From Thermoproteus tenax Kra 1 (GTDB lineage: Archaea > Thermoproteota > Thermoprotei > Thermoproteales > Thermoproteaceae), in the NCBI RefSeq assembly GCF_000253055.1, contig NC_016070.1, positions 120,001-152,000 of the forward strand: a DNA stretch of 32,000 nucleotides. Direction: 5' to 3'. The notes under the pieces are model-generated. The model had not been told where the DNA came from. It ran no database searches and worked only from the letters and a program-made list of their open reading frames with translations. Numbering within the stretch: position 1 is the stretch's first letter; each line of letters begins with the position of its first letter. Positions 2,960-21,456 of the stretch are shown piece after piece. Made by a program: the position numbers and the translations under genes.

Positions 2960-3215
2960 CCTAAGGATACCTCAGTCGATGGACTACGTGGGGCGCGTGG
3001 TCAGCATAGTGAGGAGGGCCAAGGTTACAGTGAGGACTATGGACGTAGAGATGAAGGACACGGCATACGAAGTGAACATACAGGTGGAGGGGCCGGCTGA
3101 CGAGATCAAATGGCTTGTGGCCAAGTTGGATAAACTGCCGGAGGTCCTGGAGATAAGAGAGATACCCATTCAAGCGGCCGCAGTGGCCGCTGCAGTGACC
3201 AAGGGCAATATTTAA
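2946..3215 (+). CDS. ilvN: Acetolactate synthase small (regulatory, ACT-like) subunit, short form
   Basis: 89 aa. Its start overlaps the ilvB 3' end by 14 nt. It has an ACT-like beta-alpha-beta pattern (VINLRIP...GRVVSIVRRAKVTVRTMDVE...YEVNIQVEG). The call rests mostly on position and size. Confidence 0.6.
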   Translation: MSVINLRIPQSMDYVGRVVSIVRRAKVTVRTMDVEMKDTAYEVNIQVEGPADEIKWLVAKLDKLPEVLEIREIPIQAAAVAAAVTKGNI

Positions 3216-3236
3216 AACAATACCTTATTGAGGGGC

Positions 3237-4220
3237 ATGGCGAAGATATATACTGACAAGGACGCCTCTCTAGATCCCCTCAAGGGGAAGACTATAGCGG
3301 TTCTGGGCTACGGCATTCAAGGGAGGGCTCAGGCGCTCAATCTGAGAGACTCGGGGTTGAGAGTGATAGTAGGCGTGAGGAAGGGTAAGTCTTGGGATCT
3401 GGCCGAACAAGAGGGCTTCGACGTATTCGATGTGGGCGAGGCGGTCAAAAGGGCCGACGTAGTGATGGTGCTTCTGCCCGATATGGAGCAGCCCAAGGTA
3501 TGGAGGGAGCAGATAGAGCCCAACTTGAGGGGCGGCTCAGTGGTGGACTTTGCCCATGGCTTCAACATCCACTTCGGCTTGATCAAGCCGCCTCCCAACG
3601 TTGACGTTGTGATGGTGGCCCCTAAGGGGCCCGGAAGGTTAGTCAGAGACGAGTTCCTTGCCGGTAGAGGCGTGCCCGCGCTAGTCGCAGTACATCAGAA
3701 CTACTCGGGGAGAGCTATGGAGTACGCCCTCGCCATAGCCAAGGGGATTGGGGCGACTAGGGCCGGCGTAATAGAGACGACGTTTAGGGAGGAGACCGAG
3801 ACGGACTTGATAGGGGAACAGAACGTTCTTGTCGGAGGTCTTCTGGAGCTCTTGAGGAAGGGCTTTGAGGTTATGGTCGAGCTGGGCTATCAGCCCGAGG
3901 TCGCCTACTTTGAGGCCATCAACGAGGCCAAACTCATTATGGATCTGATATGGCAGAGGGGCTTCTACGGCATGTTGACTGGTGTCAGCGAGACGGCAAG
4001 ATACGGCGGCTTGACCGTGGGCCCGAAGGTCATAGACGACTCAGTCAAACAGAGGATGAAGGAGGCGGCCGCGAGGGTTAGAGACGGCTCCTTCGCCAAA
4101 GAGTGGGTCGAGGAATACTCCAGAGGGGCGCCGAACCTCAAAAGGATGTTGGAGGAGGTAAAGGGGCATCCCGCCGAGAAGGTCGGAGAACAGATAAGGA
4201 GATTGATGTTCGGCTCATGA
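3237..4220 (+). CDS. ilvC: Ketol-acid reductoisomerase (class I)
   Basis: The ORF opens at TTG 3228, but ATG 3237 ([10 protein letters not shown]) is the likelier start. The dinucleotide fold [19 protein letters not shown] is present, along with [18 protein letters not shown] and SETARYGG. Confidence 0.92.
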
Positions 4221-5104
4221 GGATCTGGGTCGACGGCAGAATAGTGGAAGATAGAGAGGCCACAGTCTCGGTCCTCTCGCCGACGTTGAACTACGGCTTC
4301 GGCGTCTTCGAGGGAATAAGGGCCTATTGGAACGGCAAGAACCTCTACGTCTTCAGGCTGGCCGAGCACATGGAGCGCCTCCTCAGATCCGCGAGGATAA
4401 TAGGTATGGACATCCCCTACACGGCCGAGGAGCTCGTTAAAGCCACGGTGGAGACGATTAGGGCCAACGGGTATAGGGAGGACTTATACATCAGGCCTGT
4501 GGCGTTTATAGCGAAGCCGCAGATAGGTCTCGACGTCAGAGGGGTACAAGCCTCGGTGGCTATAGCGGCCTTGCCCTTCGGAAAGTATCTGAAGGCCGAG
4601 GGCGTCAGAGCCGCTGTGGTCAGCTGGAGGAGGGTTCACACATCGATGATGCCCGTTATGGCGAAGGCCACGGGGATCTACCTCAACTCAATTATGGCCG
4701 TATTAGAGGCAAAGTCGAGGGGATACGACGAGGCGATCCTTTTGAACGCAGAGGGGAAGGTGGTGGAGGGCTCGGGCGAGAATATATTCGTAGTGAGGCG
4801 AGGGATTTTGATGACGCCCCCCGTGGAGGACGGAATACTGGAGGGGATAACTAGGGAGACCGTGATAACTCTGGCGGGAGAGCTGGGGATACACGTGTTG
4901 GAGAAGAGCATATCTAGGGAGGAGCTCTACACAGCCGACGAGGCCTTCTTCGTGGGCACCGCCGCCGAGGTTACGCCGATAGTCGAAATAGACGGACGGC
5001 CGCTTCCAAGGGGGCCGATAACGGAGAGGCTGGCCAGAAAATACAGGGAGGTCGTCTTAGGGCAAGACGAGAAGTACCTCGGTTGGCTGACGCCGGTGTA
5101 TTAG
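4217..5104 (+). CDS. ilvE: Branched-chain amino acid aminotransferase (class IV PLP enzyme)
   Basis: The track ORF starts at 4103, but its first 38 codons overlap ilvC out of frame. ATG 4217 overlaps the ilvC stop (ATGA) and gives [19 protein letters not shown]. Motifs include [22 protein letters not shown] and [10 protein letters not shown]. Confidence 0.9.
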
Positions 5105-5138
5105 TCTATAGTCGCGAAAGCTTTATATATAGCCTATT

Positions 5139-6296
5139 TTGTCCGTCTATGGAGTCGGGGCTCGTATTGTAAAGATCTTCGACACAACTCTTAGAGACGG
5201 CGAGCAGATGCCCGGCGTTTCTCTAACCGTTGAGGAGAAGGTTATAATAGGCATGGCCCTTGACGAGCTCAGGGCGGACTATATAGAGGCCGGCTTCGCG
5301 GCGGTCTCGCCCGAAGAGGCCGAGGCTGTGTCCAGAATAGCCCGGGACGCAGCCTATGCGACTGTGGTGAGTTTGGCGAGAGCAAATAAACGGGATATAG
5401 ACGCGGCTGTGGACGCTGGCGTCGACATGGTGCACGTGTTCATAGCCACGAGCGACATTCACATGAAGTATAAGCTGAGGATGACTAGAGAGGAGGTCTT
5501 GGCAAAGATCGCCGAGTCCGTTGAGTACGCCAAGTCGAGGGGCGTCAAAGTCCTTTTCAGCGCCGAGGACGCGACCAGAAGCGACCTCCAGTTCTTGGTC
5601 GAGGCCTTCAGGACGGCCGTCGAGGCAGGAGCCGACGAGATAAACGTGCCGGACACCGTGGGCGTCATGACGCCGAGCCGCATGAGATACCTAGTGGAGT
5701 ACCTCAGGGGCCGGCTGCCGCCTGTACCTATGCACGTCCACTGCCACGACGACTTCGGCATGGCCGTCGCCAACACAGTCGCCGCCTTGGAGGCCGGGGC
5801 CGACGTGGCTCAAGTGACTGTGAACGGCTTCGGAGAGAGGGGCGGGAACGCGGCGTTGGAGGAGGTAGTGGCCGCCGCCGCGTTCCTCTTGGGCATGAAG
5901 ACGGGGATAATCATGGAGAAGTTGTACAATACGTCGCGGCTAGTGGCGAAGCTGTTCGGGATACAGCTACAGCCCAACAAGGCCGTAGTGGGGGACAACG
6001 CCTTCAGCCACGAGTCGGGCATACACGTCCACGGCGTATTGAACAACCCGTTCACCTACGAGCCCATGACGCCTGAGTCCGTGGGCAATAGGAGGAGGAT
6101 AGTATTGGGCAAACACTCGGGCAGACACTCGGTTGAGTGGGCCTTGAAACAGATAGGCTACGAGCCCGAGCCCGGCTTAGTCGACTACGTCCTGAGGAGG
6201 ATCAAGGAGCTGTCTGTGAAGAAGGTCTCCGTGGATGAGGACCTATTGAGGAGCATCGCCCAAGACTATAGAAAAACAATTAATATAGTGGGCTGA
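5139..6296 (+). CDS. leuA: 2-isopropylmalate synthase / (R)-citramalate synthase family, short form without a C-terminal regulatory domain
   Basis: 385 aa. Motifs are [36 protein letters not shown] and HESGIHVHG. The TTG start at 5139 is uncertain because the TATA-like ctttatatat lies only ~10 nt upstream. LeuA, CimA and HCS specificity cannot be told apart from sequence by eye. Confidence 0.8.
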
Positions 6297-6304
6297 CGGC
6301 CTGC

Positions 6305-6994
6305 GTGAAGGTAATAGATCTTTCTAGGGAGCTGTACGAGGGAATGCCGGTATATCCCGGCGATCCCATCTTTAGACATACATATCTCTCCGTAGCGAGG
6401 AGCTACGGCGAGGTGACTCTCTCGCGCGTAGAGATGGGCGCGCACACAGGCACCCATGTGGATCTGCCCGCGCACTTCGTGCCCGGAGGCGCCTCAATAG
6501 AGGCGTTGGATGCGAGCAGATTCGTGGCGTATGGATCGGTGATAGATTTAAGCTACAAGAGACCTGGGGAGGCCATAACCGCTGAGGATCTGTGGAGGCG
6601 TTCAGAGCTGATAAAGAGGGGCGAGGCCGTTATGATATACACAGGCTTCTCGGCCAAGTATGGAACAGAGGAGTTCCTCTATAATTGGCCCTATCTGGAC
6701 CGAGGGGCCGCCGATTATCTGGCCGAGGCCCGCGTAGCTGCAGTCGGCGTGGAGGGCATGTCGGTGGCAGGCTATCCAGGCGTCCAGGGCTTCCCGTATC
6801 CTCCGCGCGTCTCCAAGGACGACGTCGCCTACGTCCATTACAAACTTTTGTCGAGCGGAGTAATAGTAATCGAGAATGTGACAAATTTAGATAAAGTACT
6901 TTCAGAGTGTGGAGGGAGAGCTCTATTTATCTTTGCGCCTATAAAAATAAGGGGAGGAGAAGGGGGGCCTGCGCGCGTGCTCGCCTTATGTTAG
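6305..6994 (+). CDS. Cyclase-family protein (kynurenine formamidase-like metal hydrolase fold)
   Basis: 229 aa with a GTG start. It has the exact HxGTHxDxPxH motif ([11 protein letters not shown]) plus an N-terminal GMPVYPGDP. Its stop overlaps the convergent leuC stop (TTAG). Confidence 0.75.
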
Positions 6995-8232
6995 AGGTAC
7001 TTCCTTGGATCAACTATTCTGCCCTCCAGCGCCGCCGCGGCGGCTGTGTAGGCGTTGGCCAGATAGACTTTTGAGTCGTTGGCGCCCATTCTGCCCACGA
7101 AGTTTCTGTTGCTCGTGGACACGGCAGTCTCGCCCGGGCCCAGGACGCCGAAGTGTCCTCCTATGCACGGGCCACAAGTGCCGTAGGTTACCACGCAGCC
7201 GGCCTTGGTCAATACATCTATGTACCCCGCCTCTAAGGCCTGTCTGAAGACGGAGTAGGAGGCAGGGATGGCTATACATCTGGCCTTGGCCCTCCCCCTC
7301 TTGAGTATCCGAGCTGCCGCCTCGATATCGCTCAACCTCCCGTTGGTGCAACTCCCTATGAATACTTGGTCAACCTCGACGCCCTCGACCTCTCTTACGC
7401 TTTTGACGTTGTCGACGCTGTGTGGCGCAGCCACCAGCGGCTCGAGTCTGTCCAACTCCACCGTGTATTCATCTATATATTTCCCTCCTGGGACGAAGTC
7501 GACTCTGGGCGCGGCGCCCCTAGTCTTCTCCAGATAGGCGTAGGTCTCCGAGTCGGGCACAAACATCATGGCGTCTGCGCCGAGCTCCGTGGACATGTTG
7601 GCCACCGTTGCCCTATAGTCCATGGGGAACGCAGAAGGTCTCTCAACATATACATCAGCCGAGTATCCGTTCAAGCCCTCGGCCTTATAGACTGATAGCA
7701 GATGTAACACTACGTCCTTTCCAGTGACAGCGGCCGGGGGCTCCCCCCTTATCTCTATCTTGATGGGCTGGGGGACGACTAGCCACGTCCTCCCTATCTT
7801 GAGCATGGCGGCTATATCTGTGGCGCCCATGCCCTGGGCGAATGCGCCGACAGCTCCAGCGGTGTTCGTGTGCGAATCAGCGCCGAAGATGAAGTGGGCG
7901 GGCAGGGCGTATTTCTCGAGTATGATCTGGTGCATTATCCCCTCGCCCACGTCGTGGAAGTTCTTCAAGCCGATGGCCCTAACGTGGCGCCTAATGTAAA
8001 CTTGTATCTCGGCGGCTCTAACCGTGGGAGCAGGAGAGAGGTGGTCGAAAGCCACCACGAGCTTGTCTTTGTCGAACACCTCCACGCCGCCCATCTTCTC
8101 CATCATCTCTAGGACGTGGTACCCAGTCAGGTCGTGGAACCCCACTAGGTCTGGAACCAGCTCGACGACGTCGCCCGGGGACGGAGCTCTGCCGAGCTTT
8201 CTCGCAAATACATACTCCGTCCACGTAGACAT
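6991..8232 (-). CDS. leuC: 3-isopropylmalate dehydratase (or homoaconitase) large subunit, aconitase family
   Basis: Motifs are [38 protein letters not shown] and [10 protein letters not shown]. The ORF opens at TTG 8238. ATG 8232 sits ~25 nt downstream of a TATA-like cttatatatgc (8249-8260 on the plus strand). Confidence 0.9.
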
Positions 8233-8363
8233 GGCCAAGCCCTATTTAGCATATATAAGTATTCAGCTGTAGCCGGGCTCCCGCGAGCCGCCGGCCCCTC
8301 CAAGGCCCCCTCCTGGGGTCCACGGAGAGGAGGCCCAGATTCCCCTAAGCCTCTTGAAGCCAT

Positions 8364-8481: not shown

Positions 8482-9813
8482 ATGAGCTACTTTAGACTAA
8501 TTGAACGACTGATCTCCAGCGCAACGGGGGATCCCCCCTTGAAGGGCATTAGAGTCATCGAGTTCGCCCACTATATTCTGGGCCCCAACATACCCCGTCT
8601 TCTGGCCCAGCTTGGGGCCGAGGTCATAAAGATAGAGCCGCCGCCTCGCGGCGACCGCTGGAAGTACGCGTCCATGTGGGGCGGGAAGGGGTTCTACAAG
8701 GGCATGCGGATTGACTACCTCTATCTGAACTCTAATAAGTACTTTCTAGGCGTGGACTTCAAGAAGGAGAGAGGGAGGAAGCTGATAGTCGAGCTGGCGA
8801 AGACCGCCGATGTCTTTGTAGAAAATATGGAGCCCGGCACCCTTGATAGATACGGTCTGGGCTACCTCCAGCTGAAGGAGGTCAACCCCAAGCTGATATA
8901 CGTGAGTGCAAGCGGCTACGGAAACTGGGGCCCTCTATCGAGGCTCCCCAGCTACGACATAATAGGGCAGGCCGAGTCGGGCGTCATAGACACTACGGGC
9001 TGGGAGGGGGAGGTCCAGGAGGCCTACAGACTCCCCGACTATCCAGGCGACTGGCTTCCCTCGACTATGGCGGTCTCAGCCATAATAGCGGCGCTGATAT
9101 GGAGAGAGAAGAGCGGCAAGGGTCAGTATATAGACCTCTCTCAAGCGGCCAGCATGCAGAGACATATGTACCACTTCGCCTATATGTCGGCGACGGGGGA
9201 GAGGCTGAGGCGGAGCGGCTTCATAGACCCCTCGGCCTATTTCTCGGGAGTCTTCAAGACGTCGGACGGGAGATACGTTGCAGTGGCCGCCATGACTGAG
9301 GCCCAGTACGAGGCCTTGGCCGAACAAGTGCCAGGCCTGAAAGGGCTGAGGGATAAGCGCGATCTGGACTCTCTCTTTGTCAAATACAAGCTGGCGAGCC
9401 CGTGGTTCTCCTCAAAGAGTCTGGCGGAGTTGCTCGAGTTCGGGAGGAGGGCGGGCGTGCCGATCCAGCCGGTGTTGAACGACGAGGACGTGCTGAAGGA
9501 TCCCTGGAGGGCCGAGCGCGGATCTGTTCTGAAAATAAACGACAGGCTCTATGGAGAGATAGTGGTGCCCGGCCCTATAGTGAAGATGAGCGGGACGCCT
9601 CTGTCTGTCAAATGGGTCGCCAGGCCTGTGGGTTACCACAACAAGCTGATCTTGTTGAAAAAGATAGGTCTGAGCGAGCGCGAGGTCGAGGAGCTGGAGC
9701 GCGAGGGCATAATAGGGTATTGGGACGGCCAGTTAGGCAACACGCCGCCGCCCGGCTGGAGCCCCGAGAACGACCCCGTGTTCAAGGGCGAGAAAGACGA
9801 AGTGGAGCCATGA
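8482..9813 (+). CDS. Class III (CaiB/BaiF/Frc family) CoA-transferase, subunit 1
   Basis: 443 aa. The N-terminal Rossmann-like signature is LKGIRVIEFAHYILGPNIPRLLAQLGAEVIKIEPP. The mid-region YDIIGQAESGV contains the family's conserved Asp position. Confidence 0.85.
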   Translation: MSYFRLIERLISSATGDPPLKGIRVIEFAHYILGPNIPRLLAQLGAEVIKIEPPPRGDRWKYASMWGGKGFYKGMRIDYLYLNSNKYFLGVDFKKERGRKLIVELAKTADVFVENMEPGTLDRYGLGYLQLKEVNPKLIYVSASGYGNWGPLSRLPSYDIIGQAESGVIDTTGWEGEVQEAYRLPDYPGDWLPSTMAVSAIIAALIWREKSGKGQYIDLSQAASMQRHMYHFAYMSATGERLRRSGFIDPSAYFSGVFKTSDGRYVAVAAMTEAQYEALAEQVPGLKGLRDKRDLDSLFVKYKLASPWFSSKSLAELLEFGRRAGVPIQPVLNDEDVLKDPWRAERGSVLKINDRLYGEIVVPGPIVKMSGTPLSVKWVARPVGYHNKLILLKKIGLSEREVEELEREGIIGYWDGQLGNTPPPGWSPENDPVFKGEKDEVEP

Positions 9814-10967
9814 GCGAGCGCGAGCAGAGGCTCCAAGAGCTCTTCTCCAACAGAGAGAGCAAGCCCGAGGCGCTCGCCGGAGTGCGCGTCGTAGAGATCT
9901 GCGGCACTAACTTCGGATGCAGGCTAGCCGGCTCGTTCCTATCGGAGCTGGGCGCAGAGGTATTGACGGTGCCCGATGAGGACGCCAAAAAGATAACTCC
10001 ATACGGCGCAACTATAAACGGAGTCGGCATACCCTATTTCGTTGAGAGCAGGGGCAAGAGGGAGGTAGATCTCGAGCATGTGAGAAGCATTCTGGGCGAG
10101 GTCGATATATTGATAGACGGCCTTCCGCCCGGGAGGCTATACTCGTTGGGCTTGGGATACCCGCAGCTGTCGGAGCGTTATCCCAAGCTGATATATGTCG
10201 CCATATCTCAGTTTGGCCACTACGGCAGAAAGGCCGAGGAGTACGCAGGGATGCCAGACGCAGATCTGACTGGGCAGGCATATAACGGATACATGGCCAT
10301 GTTGGGCAATCCATCGTTGCCGGAGCCCTATTCCTACCCCATCAGAGCCGGCATATGGCTGGCCTGGGCCTTCGCGGGCGCCGCGGGCGCCCTGGGCGCT
10401 CTAGCCGCCTACTGGGCCCGCATGAGGACCGGCCGGGGCCAGTTTGTGGACGTGGCGATAAACGAGGTACTCTCAGTGGATCATCCATATCAGATAGGCG
10501 CCCCCTTCGTGTTGGGCCGGGCGCGCCAGAGGTCGCCGACTATTGACGCAAACCTTCTTGTGACTTACACCACTGCGCGCGCCAAGGACAGCTTCGTGGC
10601 TCTGGCCACGGTGATCTGGCCTGAGATTGAGGCCTTCTTCGAGATTATTGGAAGGCCCGATCTCGCTGAGAGGTGGAAGAAGGCGTTGGAGGCCTGGGAG
10701 AAAGATCCCGGCGTCCTCAAGTCGTTGGAGTCCGAGGTATTCGCCGAGGTAGCCAAGTTCAGAGGAGAGGACCTAGTCAAAGCTAGCCGTGAGAAGGGCA
10801 GGCCGCCTATAGCCGTAGTGAAGAGCATAGAGTGGGTCTCCTCGCAGGAACACTGGAGGATAAGGGGCGCCGTCATGGAGTTAGAATGTGGGGGCAAGAG
10901 GATCCTCGTGCCGGGGACTCCCTTCATGATGTCTGAGACACCAGGCAGAGTGAAGCTGAAGTGCTAG
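9810..10967 (+). CDS. Class III CoA-transferase, subunit 2 (paralogue of the preceding gene)
   Basis: The track ORF opens at 9402, but the first 136 codons are an out-of-frame overlap with the previous gene. ATG 9810 overlaps that gene's stop (ATGA) and gives MSEREQ...LAGVRVVEICGTNFGCRLAGSFLSELGAEVLTV. DADLTGQAYNG is also present. Confidence 0.8.
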   Translation: MSEREQRLQELFSNRESKPEALAGVRVVEICGTNFGCRLAGSFLSELGAEVLTVPDEDAKKITPYGATINGVGIPYFVESRGKREVDLEHVRSILGEVDILIDGLPPGRLYSLGLGYPQLSERYPKLIYVAISQFGHYGRKAEEYAGMPDADLTGQAYNGYMAMLGNPSLPEPYSYPIRAGIWLAWAFAGAAGALGALAAYWARMRTGRGQFVDVAINEVLSVDHPYQIGAPFVLGRARQRSPTIDANLLVTYTTARAKDSFVALATVIWPEIEAFFEIIGRPDLAERWKKALEAWEKDPGVLKSLESEVFAEVAKFRGEDLVKASREKGRPPIAVVKSIEWVSSQEHWRIRGAVMELECGGKRILVPGTPFMMSETPGRVKLKC

Positions 10968-12728: not shown

Positions 12729-14240
12729 GTGGCGAGACACGTGAGACTAATGGGCTTGCTGACGTCAATGGCGACTCTTGCCGTGAGCCTCTTGTACAAT
12801 ATAGCGATAACCCGAAAGCTTCACATAGAGGAGCTCGGCCTCCTCACATTGCTCAATGCGTCCACGGCCTTCTCTCTGCTTCCCAACGCCGTACTCTCCT
12901 TTGCGTTGCCCCGCATAGCCGCGAGGGATGGAGGTTTAAACGTGAGGGCGGCTCTGGCGTCGTCTACAGCGTTCTTCGCAGGCTCCGCCGCTTTAACTAT
13001 AGTGTATCTGGCTGCTACGTGGGGAAAGATGGGCGTCTATGCGCCGTTAGTGCTCTCAGTGGCTCTAGCGACGGAGCTCGTGACCTATCTATCGTCTGTG
13101 GCCGCCTCGATCCTCATGGTCAGAGATAGAGGCCGCTTCGTGTTCAGCAATTTGTTGCAAGCCGTCTCAAAGCTTGTAGCCATAGGGGCGATCTCTCTAT
13201 TGAGGTGGTCCATTGAGGCAGTGCTCTGGAGCTCTGTAGCTATAACGGCCGTGCCGGCGCTATATGGCTTTTTCTATTCTCTAAGGTATCAAGCCCCCGG
13301 CTCTCTCAGAAGGTACTTGAGGGAAATAGCCAACGCATCGTGGGTGCCTCTGATGGGCTTCGCCGTGAACTCGTTCAGAGCCTTGGACGCCACAATAATG
13401 GGCCTCCTGGGGGCTCTGAACCAGCTGGGCCTCTGGTATCTGTTCTTCATTTTATCGAAGCCGTACTCCTTTTCGACGCTCCTTTCAAATATAACTTACG
13501 GCGAGCTCCTGAGCGGGAGGAAGGGCGGCCTCTACAAGGACTTCCTCATGGTGTTGGCGTTGAGCACGTCTCTATCGTTGTCGTATGTATTCTTTGAGCC
13601 AGTGTTCATAAACTTTCTGAGGCCCGGCGAGCCGCAATACGCTGCGCCGCTCCTAGCGCCGCTCGCCATCTGGGCCGCCGCCAACGTCCTGGGCAACGTG
13701 AACATGTTCATATCCAACGTGATGCAGGGGGTGGACAAAAGGGATATACAAGGCGGGGAGATAAGGGCGAGGGCCTATCTCGGATCCCTCGTCTTCTATA
13801 CACATGCGGCCGAGCTAGTCTTCACCGCAGTGTATCTGGGGTCCATAGTGCCCCTGGTGGAGCTGGCCAAGATGTTGGGGGCCGAGTACTACGCCATCGC
13901 TGGCGTAGTAGCCGCATCGCTGTTGGCCAACATCGCTGCGCTGGCCTTCAGAGCTCTATCCAGCGGCAGATCCGCCCTAGGCTTCATCACACTCGGGTCT
14001 CTGGTACAAGACTACGCCGTCCCCCTCGCTCTATCTCTATTGGCGTTGTACTTCGTATCAAGCGCCCTGCGCCTGCCGCTTGTCCCTTCGGCGTTGTTCT
14101 CGCTGGGCGAAATTATCTTGGCGGTCATCGTCGCCTCTGGAGTCTATATCGGGGCATCGCTCGCTCTATCTAAGACCTTCAGAGAGCTGACTCTGGCGGT
14201 CGCGAGAAACTTGTTCACAATATTGTCAAATATAAGGTGA
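12729..14240 (+). CDS. Multi-pass membrane protein, MOP/Wzx-type polysaccharide or oligosaccharide flippase family
   Basis: 503 aa, with 12 or more hydrophobic segments and the typical N-terminal pattern (LLYNIAITRKLHIEELGLLTLLNASTAF). The GTG start could instead be ATG 12750. Confidence 0.6.
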   Translation: MARHVRLMGLLTSMATLAVSLLYNIAITRKLHIEELGLLTLLNASTAFSLLPNAVLSFALPRIAARDGGLNVRAALASSTAFFAGSAALTIVYLAATWGKMGVYAPLVLSVALATELVTYLSSVAASILMVRDRGRFVFSNLLQAVSKLVAIGAISLLRWSIEAVLWSSVAITAVPALYGFFYSLRYQAPGSLRRYLREIANASWVPLMGFAVNSFRALDATIMGLLGALNQLGLWYLFFILSKPYSFSTLLSNITYGELLSGRKGGLYKDFLMVLALSTSLSLSYVFFEPVFINFLRPGEPQYAAPLLAPLAIWAAANVLGNVNMFISNVMQGVDKRDIQGGEIRARAYLGSLVFYTHAAELVFTAVYLGSIVPLVELAKMLGAEYYAIAGVVAASLLANIAALAFRALSSGRSALGFITLGSLVQDYAVPLALSLLALYFVSSALRLPLVPSALFSLGEIILAVIVASGVYIGASLALSKTFRELTLAVARNLFTILSNIR

Positions 14241-14255: not shown

Positions 14256-15359
14256 GTGCTCCAATGTCTCAGATGTGGGTATAGGGGGAGCGGTCCCAAG
14301 AGGTGCCCCAGATGCGGCTTCCCCCTTATACCTGAGCCTCAAGGCAGATTCCGTATCGTCGAAGGAGAGCCCACCATATGGCGGTACGGGCCCACGTTGG
14401 GGGTGAGCAAGGGAGTGACGTTGGGCGAGGGGATGACGCCTCTGAGGAAGATAGGCGGCGTGGCGATAAAAGACGAGTCAAGAAACCCGACGGGCTCTAT
14501 AATGGACAGAGGCTCAGCCGTCTTGGCCTCAGTTTATCAAGGCGCCAGAGCCGCGGTCGCCTTCTCTGAGGATTTCACTCTGTCGATAGCCACCTACTTT
14601 TCGGCCCGGGGAATCACCGTGGAGGTATATATGGACCCTACGTCGGCAAACTACGCAGACTTTATCCTTTTGGCGAGTCTGCCGAACGTCGAAATACGCT
14701 TCGGCGTAGCTCCTAAGGTCGATGTGGAGTACGGCGAGCCCTACTTTCTGGCCGGCATAAAGACGTTGGCTTACGAGCTCTTCGAGGGAGCGAGGAAGAT
14801 GGAGGCCGTGGCGGTCCCCCTCGAGAGAGGCTATATAGCTCTAGCTATATATCAAGCGTTTAGAGAGCTTGAGGAGGAGGGCTACACAGCTCCGAGGCTC
14901 TTGTTGGCGAAATACAGAGAGGCCTCCGTCTCGGAGATAGCCCGGTGGCTCATCGATAAAGGCGCCGAACTCATCGAGGTCGACTCAGTGGACGCAGTGA
15001 GAGCCGCCGTAGAGCTCGCGAGGGAGGGCATCTATGCGAAACCGCTGTCGGCGATGGCGTATGTGGCCGCGGCCCAAGAGAAGAACGCCGTAGCCGTCAT
15101 AACGGGGACTGGGCTCAGGAGGCCCTATCTGCCGAGGAGGGGCGAGTTGGGCGGCCTTCAGGCGCAGATAATAGAGGTTCTCAGAAGGAGGGGCGAGATG
15201 ACGGCCTACCAGATATGGGACGCCTTGGGCAGAAGACCCACGCTTCGCGGGGTATATAAGGCGTTGAGCTCCCTCGCGGCGAGAGGGATTGTCGCACAGT
15301 CCTATCAAATCGAGGGGAAAAGGAGGATCAAAAGATTTAAACTGAATTCGGGAAAATAG
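14256..15359 (+). CDS. Threonine-synthase-like (PLP fold type II) protein lacking the catalytic lysine, with an N-terminal zinc ribbon and a C-terminal winged-helix domain
   Basis: 367 aa. The zinc ribbon is CLRCG-x10-CPRCG. GEGMTPL and KDESRNPTGSIMDRG correspond to the ThrC motif NPTGSFKDRG with K replaced by M. The C-terminal GEMTAYQIWDALGRRPTLRGVYKALSSLAARGIVAQSYQIEGKRRIKRFKL resembles a wHTH. The gene starts 15 nt after the flippase gene. Confidence 0.7.
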   Translation: MLQCLRCGYRGSGPKRCPRCGFPLIPEPQGRFRIVEGEPTIWRYGPTLGVSKGVTLGEGMTPLRKIGGVAIKDESRNPTGSIMDRGSAVLASVYQGARAAVAFSEDFTLSIATYFSARGITVEVYMDPTSANYADFILLASLPNVEIRFGVAPKVDVEYGEPYFLAGIKTLAYELFEGARKMEAVAVPLERGYIALAIYQAFRELEEEGYTAPRLLLAKYREASVSEIARWLIDKGAELIEVDSVDAVRAAVELAREGIYAKPLSAMAYVAAAQEKNAVAVITGTGLRRPYLPRRGELGGLQAQIIEVLRRRGEMTAYQIWDALGRRPTLRGVYKALSSLAARGIVAQSYQIEGKRRIKRFKLNSGK

Positions 15360-15450: not shown

Positions 15451-16827
15451 ATGCCGGATCCACTAGATCTCGAACTAGCCAGATTAGTGAGTGCCGTAGG
15501 CGTCTTGGCTCACCTCTCTCTGGCCTCCTCGTTTCTTGGCGCAATAGGCCTCGCAGTTATCGCCGAGTATCTATGGCTGAGGAGGCGCGACGAGGATTGG
15601 CTAAACTTGGCCAAGCGGTTTAACATCATCGCCACTATATTCTTCGGAGTAGGCGCTGCGTTCGGCACTCTGGTCGAGTTCGGCCTTGTGACAATCTGGT
15701 CCAACTTCATCGCCATAATAGGCACCGCCATAGCCCTTCCCTTCTTCCTGGAGCTCTTCGCGTTCCTCTTCGAGGTAGTGTTCCTGCCGCTCTACACGTT
15801 CACGTGGGGCCGCATCAAGAACCCGTGGCTACACTGGTTTATAGGCATCCTGGCCGCGTTCGGCGGATACTACTCGGCCTACAACATCTTGGCAGTTATG
15901 TCGTCGTTGAGCATCGCCCCGCCTGGCCTCCAGATAGTGAATCTGGCTGCGCAGGGCAAGAGCATCGCAGGGGCTATAACCTATCTGGCGACTTTCCAGA
16001 ACCCGGCGGACGCCTGGAACATATTCTGGTGGGGCGCCAACGTGTTCATATTCCACGGCATCCTGGCCGCGGTTATCCTCAGTTGGTCCGGCGTGGCGGG
16101 CGTAGTGCTCTATCTATACCTCAAGGAGAGGAAGGCGTGGCAGTATAAGCTTCTGAGGTTGGTCGTGCCCAGCGTGGCCGTATTGACCGCGATAGAGGGG
16201 TTCGTCCTAGGCCACTTGCAAGGCGAGCTGGTGTTGGAGCATGATCCTCTTAAGTTGGCCGCTCTCGAGGGCATGTTCTGGAGTGGCCTCAAGACTGACC
16301 CACTGACTGGATTAGTGGCCTATGGAAACCCCAACGCCCAGTTCTGGGGATACTACTCTTGGCCGGCCGACATAAGGCCGCCCGACTTCGTCTACATCTT
16401 CTACCTCGGCTTCATGGTAGGCGCCGGCATTCTCTTGGGCATTCTAACGGCCGGCATCGGCCTCTACTTCCTACGGGGCGAGGAGAAATGCAAGCTGACT
16501 CCCATAGTTAAGCCGTTGCTCAGACCTGCGGTGGCTATAATACCCATACTTGCAGCTCTTGCATCCATAGGCGGGGCCGTCTCGGCGGAGACCGGGCGCT
16601 ATCCCTTTATACTGGTGCAGACCGTGAGCGGGACCGACGGGCCGCCCATGATAACGGGCGTTCCAGTAGGCCCCGGAGGGCTGTTCAACCCCACTCTGCA
16701 GCTCTCGCCGGCTCTCGCCGCGCTCATAATACTCGTTGAGGTTGCCATGCCGGCGTTGGCAGGCTATATGGTGTATTTAGCTATGGCCAAGCCTCCCAAG
16801 ATACTCAAGAGGGTGATAGAGTATTGA
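15451..16827 (+). CDS. cydA: Cytochrome bd-family oxygen reductase subunit I
   Basis: 458 aa. It has an N-terminal His (AHLSL), LAKRFNIIATIFFGVGAAFGTLVEFGLVTIWSNF, KLAALEGMFWSG and GRYPFIL. A TATA-like aagattaaataac lies ~25 nt upstream of the ATG. Confidence 0.85.
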   Translation: MPDPLDLELARLVSAVGVLAHLSLASSFLGAIGLAVIAEYLWLRRRDEDWLNLAKRFNIIATIFFGVGAAFGTLVEFGLVTIWSNFIAIIGTAIALPFFLELFAFLFEVVFLPLYTFTWGRIKNPWLHWFIGILAAFGGYYSAYNILAVMSSLSIAPPGLQIVNLAAQGKSIAGAITYLATFQNPADAWNIFWWGANVFIFHGILAAVILSWSGVAGVVLYLYLKERKAWQYKLLRLVVPSVAVLTAIEGFVLGHLQGELVLEHDPLKLAALEGMFWSGLKTDPLTGLVAYGNPNAQFWGYYSWPADIRPPDFVYIFYLGFMVGAGILLGILTAGIGLYFLRGEEKCKLTPIVKPLLRPAVAIIPILAALASIGGAVSAETGRYPFILVQTVSGTDGPPMITGVPVGPGGLFNPTLQLSPALAALIILVEVAMPALAGYMVYLAMAKPPKILKRVIEY

Positions 16828-16828
16828 T

Positions 16829-18097
16829 ATGGAGACTCTGACCGCTCTGACGGTCGGCCTAATCGCTTGGTCGTTCGCAGTGCATCTGCCGCTGGTGTAT
16901 ACAGTCCTTGGCCTTGTGTGGCTTCTCCCAACCCTGGAAGTATTGGGCATTAAGAAAAACAACGATAGATACTTCGAGATAGCCAAGAGGTTGTCCCGCT
17001 ACCTTATATTTATTTATGCCATAGGCGGCCTCTTCGGGACCATAATCACGGTATTCCTCGCGGGCCTTATGCCCATATTCACCAACGCAGCCGGAGTGCT
17101 CCTGTGGCCCGTGTGGGGCGTGGCGATAGTATTCGGCGTCGCCATATCCCTTCCGCTCATCGGCTTCTACTACCGCTCCTTCGGAAAGATGGACGATGCA
17201 AAACACGCGGCGCTGGGCTATGTGTTGGCCATCTTCACCTCGATAATACCTGCGATGTTCAGGCTCGTGTTCGCCTTCATAAACTACCCCGTAGGCGTCG
17301 TAGTTAAGCCGGACCCCAACTCTGTCATCGGCTTCGACCTAGGCGCCGATCTAGGACAGGCGTTGACTAACCCCACGTATCCGCCTCTATTGATAGCTAC
17401 GTTGACCGGCGCGGTGGCCTTCACAGCCACCTTGATATCCGCCGTATACACCTGGCGCTATGCTAAGACAAAGGACGAGATATACAAGCTCGGCAAGGAG
17501 TTCTTCGCCAAAGCTGCTCTGATACTGGGCGTGATATACGTCTTGTCGGCCGTATGGTACCTCTACGAGGTCTATCAGTACAGCCCCACTGTGGCTTGGT
17601 CCATCTTCGGCTCGCCGCCCTCTTACCTCCCATCGAGCCTACAGCCCGTATATCAGCCCGACTTGAACCTCAGCTGGCTGTTCTACCTGAATATTGTATT
17701 GGGAGTAATAGTCTTGATACATTTGGCTCTCGCCCTCCGCTCCTCCAACGCGCCTCTGGCAATGTTGGCCTTCTTGGCCGTTATTGCGTTGATGGACGGC
17801 GCAGAGGTGTTGAACGGCCTCGCCCATCTGCCCTATGCAATAGTCCCCTCGCCGCCCATCGCCCTAGCTCTAGTGAACTCCTACGGCGTCAACTTCGCGT
17901 TGCAAGTGGCCAATACGCTTAAGGTCTCGACGCTGATAACTCCATCGCTCAACTCGTTGGTACAGTTGATGGGCCAAGAGCCTTGGCTTCTGGGCTTCTC
18001 GTTGGCCATGTTTGTACTGTTCAACGTCGTGTTGCTCGCAGGAGTATACTACGTGTTTGCTCTGAGGCCGCAACAGACACCCCAAACTCCTAAATAA
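16829..18097 (+). CDS. CydA-like second subunit of a bd-family oxidase (CydA' type, replacing canonical CydB)
   Basis: 422 aa polytopic membrane protein, starting 1 nt after the cydA stop. Its N-terminus aligns without gaps to CydA: VHLPLVYTVLG...LEVLGIKKNNDRYFEIAKRLSRYLIFIYAIGGLFGTII versus AHLSLASSFLG...AEYLWLRRRDEDWLNLAKRFNIIATIFFGVGAAFGTLV. Confidence 0.7.
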   Translation: METLTALTVGLIAWSFAVHLPLVYTVLGLVWLLPTLEVLGIKKNNDRYFEIAKRLSRYLIFIYAIGGLFGTIITVFLAGLMPIFTNAAGVLLWPVWGVAIVFGVAISLPLIGFYYRSFGKMDDAKHAALGYVLAIFTSIIPAMFRLVFAFINYPVGVVVKPDPNSVIGFDLGADLGQALTNPTYPPLLIATLTGAVAFTATLISAVYTWRYAKTKDEIYKLGKEFFAKAALILGVIYVLSAVWYLYEVYQYSPTVAWSIFGSPPSYLPSSLQPVYQPDLNLSWLFYLNIVLGVIVLIHLALALRSSNAPLAMLAFLAVIALMDGAEVLNGLAHLPYAIVPSPPIALALVNSYGVNFALQVANTLKVSTLITPSLNSLVQLMGQEPWLLGFSLAMFVLFNVVLLAGVYYVFALRPQQTPQTPK

Positions 18098-18116
18098 TCT
18101 CCCCTTTTTCCTCTTA

Positions 18117-19823
18117 GTGCGTTTTCCCATACTGCTATTGCTCCTTGTAGCTATAGCGTACGCACAGCTGTGCGTGAGCCAAGCCGGCAGGCTGTACCTC
18201 GCCTCAGGGGCCCTCTACTCAATCGAGTGGAACAACGCCACGGCTATATCGGGGCCGCAGGGCGTTGAGGCGGCCCTTGAGGGCGCCGGATGGGCCCTCC
18301 TCGTGCCTCAGTCGGGCGGAGCCTACGAGGCCCCCGGCGTTGTAGCCTCCTCATGTATAAACCCACAGGGTGTGCTCAACTACGCCAAAATATACAATAC
18401 GCCTTGGGGGCCGGCGGCGCCGGTTGGGCTGGCATACTACGGCGTTGCCGAGAGGGACGGGGATTACTACCCCGAGCCCTACCTCGGCTCCGAGGTGGCT
18501 GGGTGTTTCAGACTCTTGAACTTCACGGCCGTGAGCCTCTCCCCCCTCGGCCCCACGGCCGGCTATTCAATTCAGCTGAACGCTTACGTTAGATCCAACA
18601 GCGGCCACATCTACTGGGCACAAGAGCTCGTCAGATACAGCCCAAGCGGCTTCGAGCTCCTCATCAACCTCTGGAATATGACCTCATCCGTTTCGACGCT
18701 GCGCGGCGTGAGGGGGCTCGGCTCTCTGGCCTTCTACGGCGAAGATCTCTATTATTACTATCTGGCCCCCCTGCCCAACCTCACGGCAGGCTGCATGGAG
18801 ATAAGGGCCTCAGGCGACTCGCTTGAATTCCTTCTGAACGGAACTCTGATGGACAAGGTCGTTTTGCCCGAGGCCGGGCTCCAGATAGCGGCCGAGCCCT
18901 CCCTCAACGGGAGGGGGCTGCCCATGGATCTGGAGCTCGTTTTGGGCGGATACGGCGGTGTGGCCGACGTAGCCCTCGTGGAGCGCGGCTCGTTGGAGCT
19001 GAAGCTATATGTTGCCGTCGGCACATCGCTCGTCCCGCCGCCATCGGTCTGGAGCATAGGAGCATCAACTAGGGAGATCGCCATAGCCGCCGCATCGCCG
19101 AGGGGGGCGGAGGCGTTTGTGGACAAAGGCGAGCCGCAGATGAGCCAGCTGTGGGCCCAGCCCCTCTGCGTCTATTACCTCAACGGGACGCGATACTGCG
19201 GCAGGACTGAGTATCTAGTCAGTCTAGCTCTGCCCAACGGAAGCCGCCTGCTCTGGGCCCCGCGCGGCGCCAATTTGACGTTTCACTTGCCGACGATCAG
19301 ACAGGGGGGTCTAGAGCTTAGGCCCGAGGCGTCAGAGCTCAATTTAACCGTCGAGGGGCCGTTGCGTTTGAGGCCGGAGTATGAGGCGTACTTCAAAGTA
19401 TATGTAGATGCCCTCGGCTCGGCCGTAGAGCTCTGGCTGCCCAATGGATCCCGCCTCACAGCCTCTCAATTCTATCGGGCCATAGCCGGAGTGGCGTACG
19501 AGCCTCTCTACTTCGCCGGAGGCGGCCGTGAGATCGCCGTGGCGCATCCGCTCAACCTCACCGTCGTGTATACAGCGGTCTACAGAGGGAGGGCCGACGA
19601 CTTGTTGGGCCTGCCGAGCCCCCTCTCCGTGGCCGTCCTACAGTGCGGCAACGCCACAACGTACAGCCTCGCCGGCCTTGACGGCGAATATAACGCCACT
19701 TATCCACGCGTCGTGGAGGTTTGTAGCGCGCATCTATTCTCAATACCTATATCTCTCTATCTATCGCCGTTGGCGTTGCTCCTCTTTACTCGAAAATTAT
19801 TTCGGAGAAGAAATGTTTATTAA
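18117..19823 (+). CDS. Thermopsin-family (peptidase A5-like) secreted glycoprotein with a C-terminal extension and membrane anchor
   Basis: 568 aa with a GTG start and signal peptide MRFPILLLLLVAIAYAQ. The motifs APVGLAYYG, YSIQLNAYV...HIYWAQELV, INLWNMTSS and DLELVLGGYGGVA parallel thermopsin's APAGIASFG, LQFNIVL...YWLQDV, IDNVWNLTGS and AELVWGGGGNGA (from memory). There are 13 N-x-S/T sequons and a C-terminal TM followed by RRRNVY. Confidence 0.7.
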   Translation: MRFPILLLLLVAIAYAQLCVSQAGRLYLASGALYSIEWNNATAISGPQGVEAALEGAGWALLVPQSGGAYEAPGVVASSCINPQGVLNYAKIYNTPWGPAAPVGLAYYGVAERDGDYYPEPYLGSEVAGCFRLLNFTAVSLSPLGPTAGYSIQLNAYVRSNSGHIYWAQELVRYSPSGFELLINLWNMTSSVSTLRGVRGLGSLAFYGEDLYYYYLAPLPNLTAGCMEIRASGDSLEFLLNGTLMDKVVLPEAGLQIAAEPSLNGRGLPMDLELVLGGYGGVADVALVERGSLELKLYVAVGTSLVPPPSVWSIGASTREIAIAAASPRGAEAFVDKGEPQMSQLWAQPLCVYYLNGTRYCGRTEYLVSLALPNGSRLLWAPRGANLTFHLPTIRQGGLELRPEASELNLTVEGPLRLRPEYEAYFKVYVDALGSAVELWLPNGSRLTASQFYRAIAGVAYEPLYFAGGGREIAVAHPLNLTVVYTAVYRGRADDLLGLPSPLSVAVLQCGNATTYSLAGLDGEYNATYPRVVEVCSAHLFSIPISLYLSPLALLLFTRKLFRRRNVY

Positions 19824-19842
19824 GACATAAATTCCTAGTGGC

Positions 19843-20481
19843 ATGGTCGAAGTGAAAGGTCCCTACCTGGGGATGCAAATACCGGAGGATCTGTGCTTCA
19901 ATACCGACATGGGGAGAAAGTGCTTCAGAGACTACAAGGGCAAGTGGCTGTTGTTGTTCAGCCACCCCGGCGACTTTACGCCAGTCTGCACCACAGAGTT
20001 CATAGAGTTCGCCAAAAAGTACGAGGAGTTCAAGAAGCGGGGAGTCGAGCTGTTGGGCCTTAGCGTAGACACTGACATAAGCCACATAGAGTGGAAGAGG
20101 CAGATCAAACAGCTTTGGGGCGTCGAGATACCGTTCCCGATAATCGCCGATGTGCCCGACTTCCAAGTGGCAAACTTCTTCAACGCAATACCGCCCGGCA
20201 CTACGGCCACGGTGAGGATGGTCGCCCTAATAGACCCGGACCTCAAACTTGCGTGGTTCGCGTTGTATCCGTTGACCAACGGCAGAAACATAGACGAAAT
20301 AATAAGAGTCATCGACGCGGTGCAGACTACATATAAACACGGCGTGGCTACGCCGGCCAACTGGAGGCCCGGCGACCCGGTGATAGTGCCTCCTCCGCAC
20401 AGCTACGCCGACGCTGAGAAGAGGCTGAAGGAGCCGGGAATCGAGTGCAAGACTTGGTGGTTCTGTACCAAGAAGATCTAA
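19843..20481 (+). CDS. Peroxiredoxin (archaeal Prx6-like thiol peroxidase)
   Basis: 212 aa. FSHPGDFTPVCTTEF contains the peroxidatic Cys. The C-terminal CKTWWFC Cys pair matches that described for Aeropyrum-type Prx. Confidence 0.9.
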   Translation: MVEVKGPYLGMQIPEDLCFNTDMGRKCFRDYKGKWLLLFSHPGDFTPVCTTEFIEFAKKYEEFKKRGVELLGLSVDTDISHIEWKRQIKQLWGVEIPFPIIADVPDFQVANFFNAIPPGTTATVRMVALIDPDLKLAWFALYPLTNGRNIDEIIRVIDAVQTTYKHGVATPANWRPGDPVIVPPPHSYADAEKRLKEPGIECKTWWFCTKKI

Positions 20482-20484
20482 ACA

Positions 20485-20493
20485 TTTATTTTT
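20485..20493 (+). terminator. Oligo-T tract after the peroxiredoxin gene (candidate archaeal terminator)
   Basis: tttattttt lies 4 nt after the TAA stop. Archaeal RNAP terminates at T-runs. There is no experimental support. Confidence 0.35.
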
Positions 20494-20544
20494 CCCATTT
20501 CTCTCTCCGTCAAGCTTTAATATCATAGTCGGAGTGGTTCTTTG

Positions 20545-21456
20545 ATGGAAGTTAGTTCTAAAAAGAACTTAATTCGGACAATTGCGTCCGAATTCGCCGA
20601 GGACGAACACTTGGACTACAACGTCTACAGAGCCTTAGCCCGCGTCGAAAGAAACGAGAACAGGAGACGCGTCCTCGAGAGGCTTGCCGAGACTGAGCAA
20701 CGCCATTTCCACTTCTGGCTCAAGTTCTTGGACGGCTATAAACCCTCTCTGAAGGTCAAGCTGTACCCCCTCTTGTTAGTCCTCCTTAGGTTCCTCTTCG
20801 GTGTGACCTTCGTCGTAAAGCTCTTTGAGGCAGGCGAGGAACACGCCGTGGAGAAATACAAAATGGCGCTCGACTTAATGGAGACGCCTGAGGATAAGAG
20901 GGCTCTCGAGGAGATAATAAAGGACGAGCTTGAGCATGAACAGTACTTTGTGGGCCAGCTGGACGAGGCCGTGGTCAAGTACATGAGCGCCTTGGTCTTG
21001 GGCATGGCCGACGCCATAATAGAGATAACGGGAACTCACGCGGGCGCCCTCGGCACTACAAGCTCCTCAATAATAACTGGCGTCGTGGGGCTGGTGGTCG
21101 GCGTTTCCGCCGCCATCTCTATGGCCTCTGCCTCGTACCTCCAGACTAAACACGAGTTGGGTAAATCCCCCACAATAGCCGCCCTAGTTACCGGCGTCGG
21201 CTACGTGGTTGCGGCCGCCCTTATGTCGCTCCCCTACTTCTTGATCGAGAACATCTACGCTGCCTTCGCGACCTCAGTAGCCGTCAGCGTGCTCCTGGCG
21301 TTGACCTTCACATTTCAGGGAAGCGTCTACACCGGCGCTGACTTTCGCCGCGAGTTTGCGCAGACGGTGGCCCTCCTGCTCGGCGTAGCGGCGCTTGCGT
21401 ATGTAATGGGCGATGCGTTGAGCGCGGCGTTTGGCATTAAAAGTCTAATAAAGTAG
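20545..21456 (+). CDS. Ferritin-like (erythrin) domain fused to a VIT1/CCC1 iron-transporter domain (MbfA-like)
   Basis: The ORF opens at TTG 20542 and ATG is at 20545. Di-iron-type ExxH motifs are present (ETEQRH, DELEHE), followed by the VIT1-type segment LVLGMADAIIEITGTHAGALG and about 4 more TM helices. Confidence 0.8.
   Translation: MEVSSKKNLIRTIASEFAEDEHLDYNVYRALARVERNENRRRVLERLAETEQRHFHFWLKFLDGYKPSLKVKLYPLLLVLLRFLFGVTFVVKLFEAGEEHAVEKYKMALDLMETPEDKRALEEIIKDELEHEQYFVGQLDEAVVKYMSALVLGMADAIIEITGTHAGALGTTSSSIITGVVGLVVGVSAAISMASASYLQTKHELGKSPTIAALVTGVGYVVAAALMSLPYFLIENIYAAFATSVAVSVLLALTFTFQGSVYTGADFRREFAQTVALLLGVAALAYVMGDALSAAFGIKSLIK

Follow-up and report, generated by a model that had tools for sequence, protein, structure and literature searches.

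A noncatalytic threonine synthase-like protein with a winged-helix tail in Thermoproteus tenax, a candidate archaeal vitamin B6-responsive regulator

The stretch of DNA analyzed here, called the window, comprises 32,000 nt of the genome of Thermoproteus tenax Kra 1 (contig NC_016070.1, positions 120,001 to 152,000, forward strand). The gene in question, called X, encodes a protein in which a threonine synthase (ThrC)-like domain is followed by a winged helix-turn-helix (wHTH) domain. The analysis supports X as a noncatalytic ThrC-fold protein fused to a genuine wHTH, and the genome context of its relatives points to vitamin B6, not to amino acids. A ligand-sensing transcription factor is the most economical reading of X. 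The T. tenax genome paper (PMC3189178) makes no mention of the gene, and no paper characterizing a ThrC-wHTH regulator was found in the searchable literature, which covers few subscription journals and does not prove absence. The features of the gene are listed in Table 1.

Sequence features of the fusion protein

The ThrC-like domain gave a Pfam PALP match of 1.2e-20. Full-length X was modeled with AlphaFold2 at a predicted local distance difference test score (pLDDT) of 90.9, and the best matches of the model in the PDB, found with Foldseek, were the threonine synthases 6nmx, 1uim, and 2zsj; no solved structure spans a ThrC-wHTH fusion. The original prediction, made by eye from the sequence, had read a fold-type-II layout of pyridoxal 5′-phosphate (PLP) enzymes in this domain, which the Pfam match and the model bear out. 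Catalytic sites were mapped by HMMER alignment to the solved ThrC structures 2zsj, 2d1f, 1uim, and 6cgq. Met83 of X aligns on the Schiff-base Lys of all four (NPTGSFKDRG versus NPTGSIMDRG), and the replacements of S-T-G-N by S104-E-D-F107 and of the phosphate loop by L189-E-R-G-Y193 were recovered in the same alignment, so that the three lost sites of the original prediction hold against solved enzymes. A fourth lost site was found at E158/Y159/F164, which stand at ThrC N154/S155/R160 (Thermus thermophilus numbering), which we take to be the residues binding the phosphate of O-phosphohomoserine. The motifs GEGxTPL, K72-x-E, NPTGS..DR, and TGTGL are kept. The predicted N-terminal CxxC ribbon is present, with a spacing of CxxC-x9-CxxC in place of the x10 first given; it also occurs in Lys-bearing archaeal ThrC and is therefore inherited, not new.

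A word-indexed protein search returned 36 close orthologs of X (33 to 65% identity), from sources including Thermoproteus, Vulcanisaeta, Conexivisphaera, and Fervidicoccaceae, none of which has the Lys. Because the position is occupied by Met, Ala, Val, Ile, or Ser in all 36, the loss of Lys is not a sequencing error; the Met emphasized in the original prediction is itself not fixed. Asp106 and Tyr159 are invariant in this set, and Phe107 is found in 33 of the 36. The same search gave dozens of 440- to 490-aa Nitrososphaerales proteins with PALP and PadR matches, also without the Lys, together with tail-less matches of 360 to 370 aa that keep it.

X scored far under the cutoffs of all ThrC models: 106.7 versus 421 for NF004170, its best NCBIfam match, 81.9 versus 301 for NF005035, and 16.2 versus 167.1 for TIGR00260. 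These scores bear on the possibility that X is still an enzyme, in which another Lys or noncovalent PLP supports catalysis and the tail is incidental. NCBIfam and JGI do call relatives “threonine synthase,” and rare tail-bearing members keep the Lys; however, four functional sites were lost together, the loss is conserved, and the genome of Vulcanisaeta sp. AZ3 has a Lys-bearing ThrC (P0037) as well as X (L011). The coexistence of the two makes X a paralog and not the ThrC of the cell, and continued catalysis is considered very improbable.

The last 73 aa of X, modeled alone, gave a pLDDT of 93.1 and an H-H-H-beta-beta order of secondary structure (DSSP). The model matched wHTH DNA-binding proteins with template-modeling (TM) scores of 0.76 to 0.83, among them Stf76, 1sfx, MarR/AdcR, and 5x11, which is PadR bound to its operator; TFE and ScpB were also among the structural matches. 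The three helices and beta-hairpin wing of the model thus agree with the wHTH pattern that had been read in the last ~70 aa. Pfam scores of the tail (aa 298 to 363) stayed below gathering (TrmB, 19.5 < 25.6; PadR, 14.9 < 27; HTH_27, 14.2 < 22.2), and a profile search of the tail against the PDB gave weak matches (E = 0.02 to 0.3). PALP and both folds of the proposed two-domain protein were recovered, while no named Pfam wHTH family reached its gathering score. The recognition helix is strongly conserved and basic, and the wing is basic as well (GKRRIKRF).

Table 1. Features of gene X and its surroundings, with positions counted from the first nucleotide of the window.
Feature	Position	Strand	Remark
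Possible TATA box for X, AAATATAA	14228..14235	+	In 3′ end of upstream gene; read by eye
ThrC-like pseudoenzyme and wHTH fusion gene (X)	14256..15359	+	367 aa and stop; GTG start; CCC80818.1 / WP_014126076.1
N-terminal zinc ribbon, C4-x2-C7-x9-C17-x2-C20	14265..14315	+	Four Cys invariant in family
ThrC-like fold-type-II PLP-enzyme domain, aa ~39-288	14370..15119	+	Pfam, AlphaFold2, structure match
N77-PTGSIMDRG86	14484..14513	+	Schiff-base Lys position is Met83, codon 14502-14504
S104-E-D-F107, replacing S-T-G-N	14565..14576	+	Asn there holds PLP O3′
E158-Y-G-E-P-Y-F164	14727..14747	+	Aligned to ThrC N154-S-V-N-P-H-R160
L189-E-R-G-Y193	14820..14834	+	Replaces Gly-rich PLP-phosphate loop G-N-A-G-N
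T283-G-T-G-L-R288	15102..15119	+	ThrC C-terminal TGxGLK motif kept
Flexible linker	15120..15152	+	Model pLDDT <50 at aa 289-295
wHTH domain	15153..15344	+	H300-312, H317-323, H330-342, beta-hairpin wing 346-363
Predicted recognition helix, T329-LRGVYKAL...	15240..15281	+	Identical or near-identical in pdxST-linked relatives

Distribution and the two clades

In a profile search of 1.84 billion representatives, ~110 clusters matched the profile through the wHTH. Counted on 50%-identity cluster representatives, the Lys is absent from 80 of 82 tail-bearing proteins, which have L, I, R, V, M, T, A, S, N, Y, or F instead, and is kept in 14 of 16 tail-less ones; the two tail-bearing representatives that keep it are P0195 and P0203. 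The association of the tail with loss of the Lys was repeated in the genome loci. Taking one genome per species, the fusion was found in Thermoproteales, Sulfolobales, Desulfurococcales, Acidilobales, Fervidicoccales, Methanomethylicia, Bathyarchaeia, Nitrososphaerales, Thermococci, and some Methanomicrobia. The uniqueness of the architecture implied by the original prediction was not upheld: the fusion is widespread in Archaea, the UniRef label for X already reads “Threonine synthase fused to HTH transcriptional regulator,” and NF004170 covers fusion members.

The members fall into a short clade I, to which X belongs, and a long clade II (Table 2); a neighbor-joining tree served only to order the sequences, and its deep branching is not reliable. 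X carries all the marks of clade I, namely, the zinc ribbon, NPTGS[FYI]xDR (x not Lys), x-E/x-D-F for STGN, and a tail containing TAYxxW and [TS]L[RQK]G[VI]YK. Clade II tails match Pfam PadR. Since clade II keeps the residues that hold PLP, its members could still hold PLP noncovalently, whereas in clade I the phosphate loop and the Asn at O3′ are replaced by acidic or bulky residues, which makes canonical PLP binding unlikely. Neither clade retains the Arg found at the substrate-phosphate site of ThrC.

Table 2. Marks of the two clades of the fusion family.
Mark	Clade I (including X)	Clade II
Length	365-390 aa	410-500 aa
Residue at Lys position	M/V/A/S/I	I/R/L/M/V/T
S-T-G-N position	x-E-D-F	G-N (or G-D) kept
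Phosphate loop	x-E-x-G-x	GxGG kept
Recognition helix	[TS]L[RQK]G[VI]YKAL	...VYQHL (PadR-like)

NF004170 (PRK05638) is an equivalog model named “threonine synthase” with 442 positions, and it includes the wHTH tail, as X does. X, in the sister short clade, lies far below its cutoff. Clade II proteins without the Lys pass the cutoff of 421, with 805 bits in Thermococci (L082:8001-9329) and 447 bits in Thermogladius (L035:7986-9287). The product name is very probably wrong for the Lys-less fusion members, and archaeal genomes seem to be systematically misannotated on this point. The naming can mislead the reconstruction of threonine biosynthesis in Archaea.

Some members depart from these patterns. 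In two bathyarchaeial loci (L033:7974-9395 and L037:7974-9395) and in the representatives P0195 and P0203, a full wHTH tail is combined with the Schiff-base Lys (NPTNSFKDR). These Lys-keeping fusions adjoin a gene of the PdxU family, described below, and their nearest relatives have Arg at the Lys position; they may represent an ancestral-like state with covalent PLP binding or a reversion from Arg to Lys. X appears to be split or truncated in Vulcanisaeta sp. JCM 16159 and V. souniana (240 + 147 aa and 244 aa; L017:7935-9127, P0026, P0028), which could reflect a pseudogene or an assembly error.

Genome context in relatives

Open reading frames (ORFs) were called in all fetched loci, ~90 in number, and the neighbors were clustered. 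Seven loci of clade I, belonging to different orders (L005, L016, L019, L020, L021, L022, and L028), have pdxS-pdxT directly upstream of X on the same strand, with pdxT-X spacings that range from an overlap to a gap of ~30 nt. PdxS and PdxT scored above the curated cutoffs (451 > 395 bits and 188 > 105 bits, respectively). When PdxS was taken as the starting point, the order pdxS-pdxT-X was found in three of four further genomes, from Sulfolobales (L090), Acidilobaceae (L092), and Desulfurococcus mucosus (L094). An unbiased scan of clade I placed pdxS-pdxT linkage or an operator of the type described below near 9 of 27 loci. PdxS/PdxT is the sole route to PLP in Archaea (PMC9997740).

Clade II X adjoins a gene for a PF07155 energy-coupling factor (ECF) S component in 26 loci, with scores of 74 to 125 bits versus a gathering score of 26.7. 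The B6 transporters PdxU and PdxU2/HmpT belong to PF07155/COG4720 (PMC9997740). The PF07155 gene is divergent from X in Nitrososphaerales, where it is accompanied by an AIRS-domain gene, and co-directional with X in Desulfurococcales, where it is followed by an ATP-binding cassette (ABC) ATPase gene and a third conserved gene without a Pfam match.

No threonine or other amino-acid gene recurred as a neighbor in the ~90 loci. This bears on the ligand named in the original prediction, which saw X as an amino-acid or metabolite sensor driving transcription. A sensor of amino acids or ThrC substrates, in which the dead pocket binds threonine, homoserine, or O-phosphohomoserine and regulates amino-acid metabolism, would fit a scaffold derived from ThrC, the strong conservation of its NPTGS..DR and TGxGL motifs, and the branched-chain amino-acid genes 7 to 13 kb upstream in the window. 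Against it, the residues aligned to N154/S155/R160 are replaced in both clades, pdxST and PdxU-family genes recur in the loci where amino-acid genes do not, and the conserved operator is located at pdxS promoters. With the substrate-phosphate site gone and no relative beside threonine or other amino-acid genes, the amino-acid part of the prediction is not supported and is considered unlikely, while a dead ThrC fold with a genuine wHTH, as a metabolite sensor would have, stands.

Several side observations were made in these loci. Crenarchaeal PdxS has a conserved N-terminal extension of ~40 aa, LxDSYxxLEKLRxLIYxLLExRD, ahead of the region covered by the curated model, which starts at residue 40 to 47 (L005:4379-4500, L019, L020, L021, L022, L028, L089, and L092). 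Where the PdxU-family gene stands beside clade II X in Nitrososphaerales and Bathyarchaeia, it has a conserved partner that encodes an AIRS/AIRS_C protein, HypE/ThiL/SelD-like and below all curated cutoffs (L007:4129-5145, L046:10216-11241, L072:4169-5194, and 13 others); a role in B6 salvage would be a guess. In Thermococci (L082:10974-11663, L044:8315-8998), X immediately follows FttA/aCPSF1, and the gene for ribose-5-phosphate isomerase A (rpiA) is the second one downstream of X. A B6 theme was sought among the thermococcal neighbors (proteasome beta, FttA, a beta-propeller protein, and rpiA), and none was clear; the rpiA product makes a PdxS substrate, and the B6 link there is weak at best.

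Candidate operator

A RAACGTTY core was found in 10 of 11 pdxS upstream regions, usually as the 12-bp palindrome TTGAACGTTCAA. Its distance is fixed, at −58 to −74 relative to a conserved DSY codon close to the pdxS start, and an A/T-rich TATA-like box directly follows it. The background expectation for RAACGTTY is 0.008 per 160 nt, and 2 of 11 was not exceeded in 5,000 shuffles. The exact form TGAACGTTCA occurs in seven copies in 1.18 Mb of loci, all at promoter positions: five at pdxS, one before a pair of a major facilitator superfamily (MFS) transporter gene and X (L023), and one before X itself (L024). In L022, a second copy, with one mismatch, precedes a CitMHS-family transporter gene that itself precedes pdxS. 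The MFS gene (L023:6738-7992) and the CitMHS gene (L022:4604-6199) are candidate B6-related transporters with a pdxS-type operator upstream.

Vulcanisaeta is the genus closest to T. tenax whose pdxS promoter was compared. Vulcanisaeta sp. JCM 14467 has pdxS-pdxT without an adjoining X, and the operator position in its promoter is taken by the perfect palindrome TTAAACGTTTAA, a symmetric G-to-A and C-to-T variant of TTGAACGTTCAA. The recognition helix of Vulcanisaeta X reads T[IV]QGVYKAL, with Gln where others have Arg or Lys. Covariation of Arg/Gln with G/A would be expected if that residue of the helix reads operator positions 3 and 10.

A conserved palindrome that stands where an operator is expected, in the promoters of pdxS, MFS-X, and X, calls for a protein that binds it sequence-specifically, and no regulator-like gene other than X co-occurs with it. 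This counts against X as a partner of PLP synthase that is not a transcription factor, for instance one that carries or buffers PLP or acts as a subunit in assembly or regulation, with the winged helix serving protein contacts. Such a partner would suit the tight, probably translationally coupled pdxS-pdxT-X operons, and winged-helix folds do occur in non-DNA-binding roles (TFE and ScpB being among the structural matches); but the conserved basic recognition helix and basic wing speak against it, and X is often unlinked from pdxST. A partner role of this kind is judged quite improbable, somewhat more so than an amino-acid sensor.

In clade II, other palindromes were seen by inspection. The divergent promoter region that separates the PdxU-family gene from X carries a conserved TATA-like palindrome in back-to-back arrangement, ATATATAAG-n6-8-CCTATATAT (L007, L040, L058, L068, L073, L080, and L083), and in Desulfurococcales and Thermogladius, palindromes such as TTAAAGTTTAAACTTTAA lie in the spacer from X to PdxU. 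These AT-rich sequences may be regarded as candidate operators.

Neighborhood of X in the window

X starts 15 nt past an upstream membrane-protein ORF (503 aa, ending at 14240). The spacing agrees with the original prediction; its label “flippase” is not confirmed by Pfam, which gives no match for the ORF. The center of AAATATAA lies ~24 nt ahead of the GTG of X, and this candidate promoter may drive a near-leaderless transcript of X. Downstream, 91 nt of AT-rich sequence separate the stop of X from the start of cydA (15451), the first of two cytochrome-bd subunit-I-like genes that directly follow X.

X could instead be a local regulator, either of the cydAA′-thermopsin-peroxiredoxin-rubrerythrin cluster, in response to oxygen or oxidative stress, or of the upstream membrane-protein gene. 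In its favor, the order membrane protein-(epimerase)-X-cydA-cydA′-thermopsin-peroxiredoxin (Prx)-rubrerythrin/VIT1 is kept in four Thermoproteus-like loci, and the AT-rich stretch after X is a promoter region. This synteny is limited to close relatives (62 to 65% identity), however, and Vulcanisaeta, Acidilobus, and others differ; the family operator is missing from these promoters and their vicinity, and the recognition helix is the same as in the pdxS-linked members, which predicts the same DNA target. As the adjacency of X and cydAA′ is confined to Thermoproteus-like genomes and the operator is absent from the window, control of the neighbors, which the original prediction had implied for cydAA′, has no support and is as unlikely as an amino-acid sensor.

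The remaining genes of the window were recorded as side observations. The run downstream of X (15451-21456) looks related to oxygen or oxidative stress; besides the two cytochrome-bd subunit-I-like genes, it encodes a thermopsin-family protease, a 1-Cys peroxiredoxin, and a fusion of rubrerythrin with VIT1. A cluster for the biosynthesis of branched-chain amino acids occupies 1232-8238, with genes for an acetolactate-synthase-like thiamine pyrophosphate (TPP) enzyme, ketol-acid reductoisomerase, a class IV aminotransferase, an HMGL-like protein (isopropylmalate/homocitrate synthase family), and an aconitase-family (LeuC-like) protein; on the evidence here it is unrelated to X. At 8482-10967, two family III coenzyme A (CoA)-transferase ORFs are listed with an overlap of ~400 nt; the start listed for the second is probably too far upstream, since the Pfam match of this ORF begins at residue 158.

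Interpretation

X is judged probable, though not strongly so, to be a B6-responsive regulator of PLP synthase that acts in trans, an archaeal analog of bacterial PdxR, and for the family as a whole the same reading is held somewhat more firmly. X is 33 to 36% identical over its full length to the pdxST-linked members and has their recognition helix, TLRGVYKAL, as well as the clade pocket residues D106, F107, Y159, E190, and G192. From the Arg in its helix, TTGAACGTTCAA is predicted at the pdxS promoter of T. tenax.

In the proposed mechanism, X would dimerize through its ThrC-like domain; ThrC is a homodimer, which is the basis of the proposed dimer. The two wHTH domains would bind the palindrome at the edge of the TFB recognition element (BRE)/TATA box of the pdxS promoter, at another place in the T. 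tenax chromosome, and a vitamin B6-related ligand in the remodeled pocket would alter occupancy. The result would be feedback control of PLP synthase. Repression, by blocking or competing with TFB, would be the likelier sign because of the operator position and the encoding of the regulator in the operon; activation would also be possible.

A number of points weigh against the proposal of a B6-responsive regulator, which is computational as a whole. For T. tenax X, the B6 link comes from orthology, its own pdxS promoter lying outside the comparison, and several pocket positions of the Thermoproteales subclade (M83, F164, R191, and Y193) are unlike those of the pdxST-linked members. The ligand proposed for clade I follows from regulon logic and not from pocket chemistry, as canonical PLP binding is unlikely. 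The covariation of Arg/Gln with G/A comes from one Vulcanisaeta promoter. In the 32-kb window, TTGAACGTTCAA, GAACGTTC, and TTRAACGTTYAA, searched with mismatches, occur at or near chance, with none in a promoter near X. X lies away from B6 genes in Thermoproteus, Vulcanisaeta, one Acidilobus group, and other clade I loci, and thermococcal X has no B6 neighbors except rpiA two genes downstream. Membership in PF07155 leaves the specificity of the transporters unfixed. Neither pdxS-pdxT linkage nor a TTGAACGTTCAA-type operator was found in the window or at X in other Thermoproteus loci, and no Thermoproteus entry was among the best 120 matches of the PdxS protein searches.

At its widest, the proposal is given marginally better than an even chance: Archaea would have a widespread family of B6 regulators, independent of PdxR, made from a ThrC fold-type-II scaffold without the catalytic Lys. 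The long clade would sense free PLP noncovalently and control PdxU-type uptake, and the short clade, X included, with a pocket rebuilt from acidic and aromatic residues, would have come to sense B6 status anew, through another vitamer or a metabolite related to PLP synthase, and would control pdxST via TTGAACGTTCAA at the BRE/TATA edge. If this is true, hundreds of “threonine synthase” database entries are transcription factors. PLP is an essential but reactive cofactor, and control of its synthesis in Archaea is not described in the searchable literature; the family offers a candidate regulator, operator, and regulon (pdxST, PdxU-family genes, and MFS transporters). It also offers a case of a pseudoenzyme turned sensor, with two grades of pocket decay side by side and rare Lys-retaining, intermediate-like relatives.

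Comparison with known systems

X shares with bona fide ThrC (TIGR00260, and the archaeal PRK06450/PRK08329 type with a zinc ribbon) the fold, the ribbon, and the motifs GEGxTPL, NPTGS..DR, and TGxGLK. ThrC has the Schiff-base Lys, the Asn at O3′, the Gly-rich phosphate loop, and the substrate-phosphate residues, whereas X lacks all four and has an extra wHTH that ThrC does not have. That tail resembles the wHTH of PadR, MarR, and TrmB regulators in fold, at the TM scores given above, and in clade II by match to Pfam PadR; unlike theirs, it scores below every Pfam gathering score in X, and the sensor domain of X is unrelated to these families. A conceptual parallel is archaeal ThiR, reportedly a ThiN-domain repressor of thiamine genes (Hwang et al. 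2017, J Bacteriol 199:e00810-16, cited in PMC8305020). In ThiR, a vitamin-pathway enzyme domain serves as the sensor of a DNA-binding repressor; its fold is unrelated, its vitamin is thiamine, and its domain order is different.

MocR proteins, to which PdxR belongs, keep the PLP Lys and bind PLP covalently, whereas X has no such Lys. They are fold type I and aminotransferase-like, with an N-terminal GntR-type wHTH; X is fold type II, of independent origin, with a C-terminal, non-GntR wHTH and no GntR or aminotransferase Pfam match. Like the family of X, they reuse a PLP-enzyme fold as the sensor of a wHTH protein, and their repeat-type operators and probable dimer are as proposed for X. The regulon of bacterial PdxR comprises pdxST and the B6 transporter gene pdxU, and MocR/PdxR regulators are reported absent from Archaea (PMC5320631). 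That regulon resembles the association of the relatives of X with pdxST and PdxU-family genes, nothing of which lies in the window itself. By this analogy, bacterial PdxR would be the closest functional counterpart of the family, though structurally unrelated, and X is best placed in a new class of candidate vitamin B6 regulators that evolved independently in Archaea.

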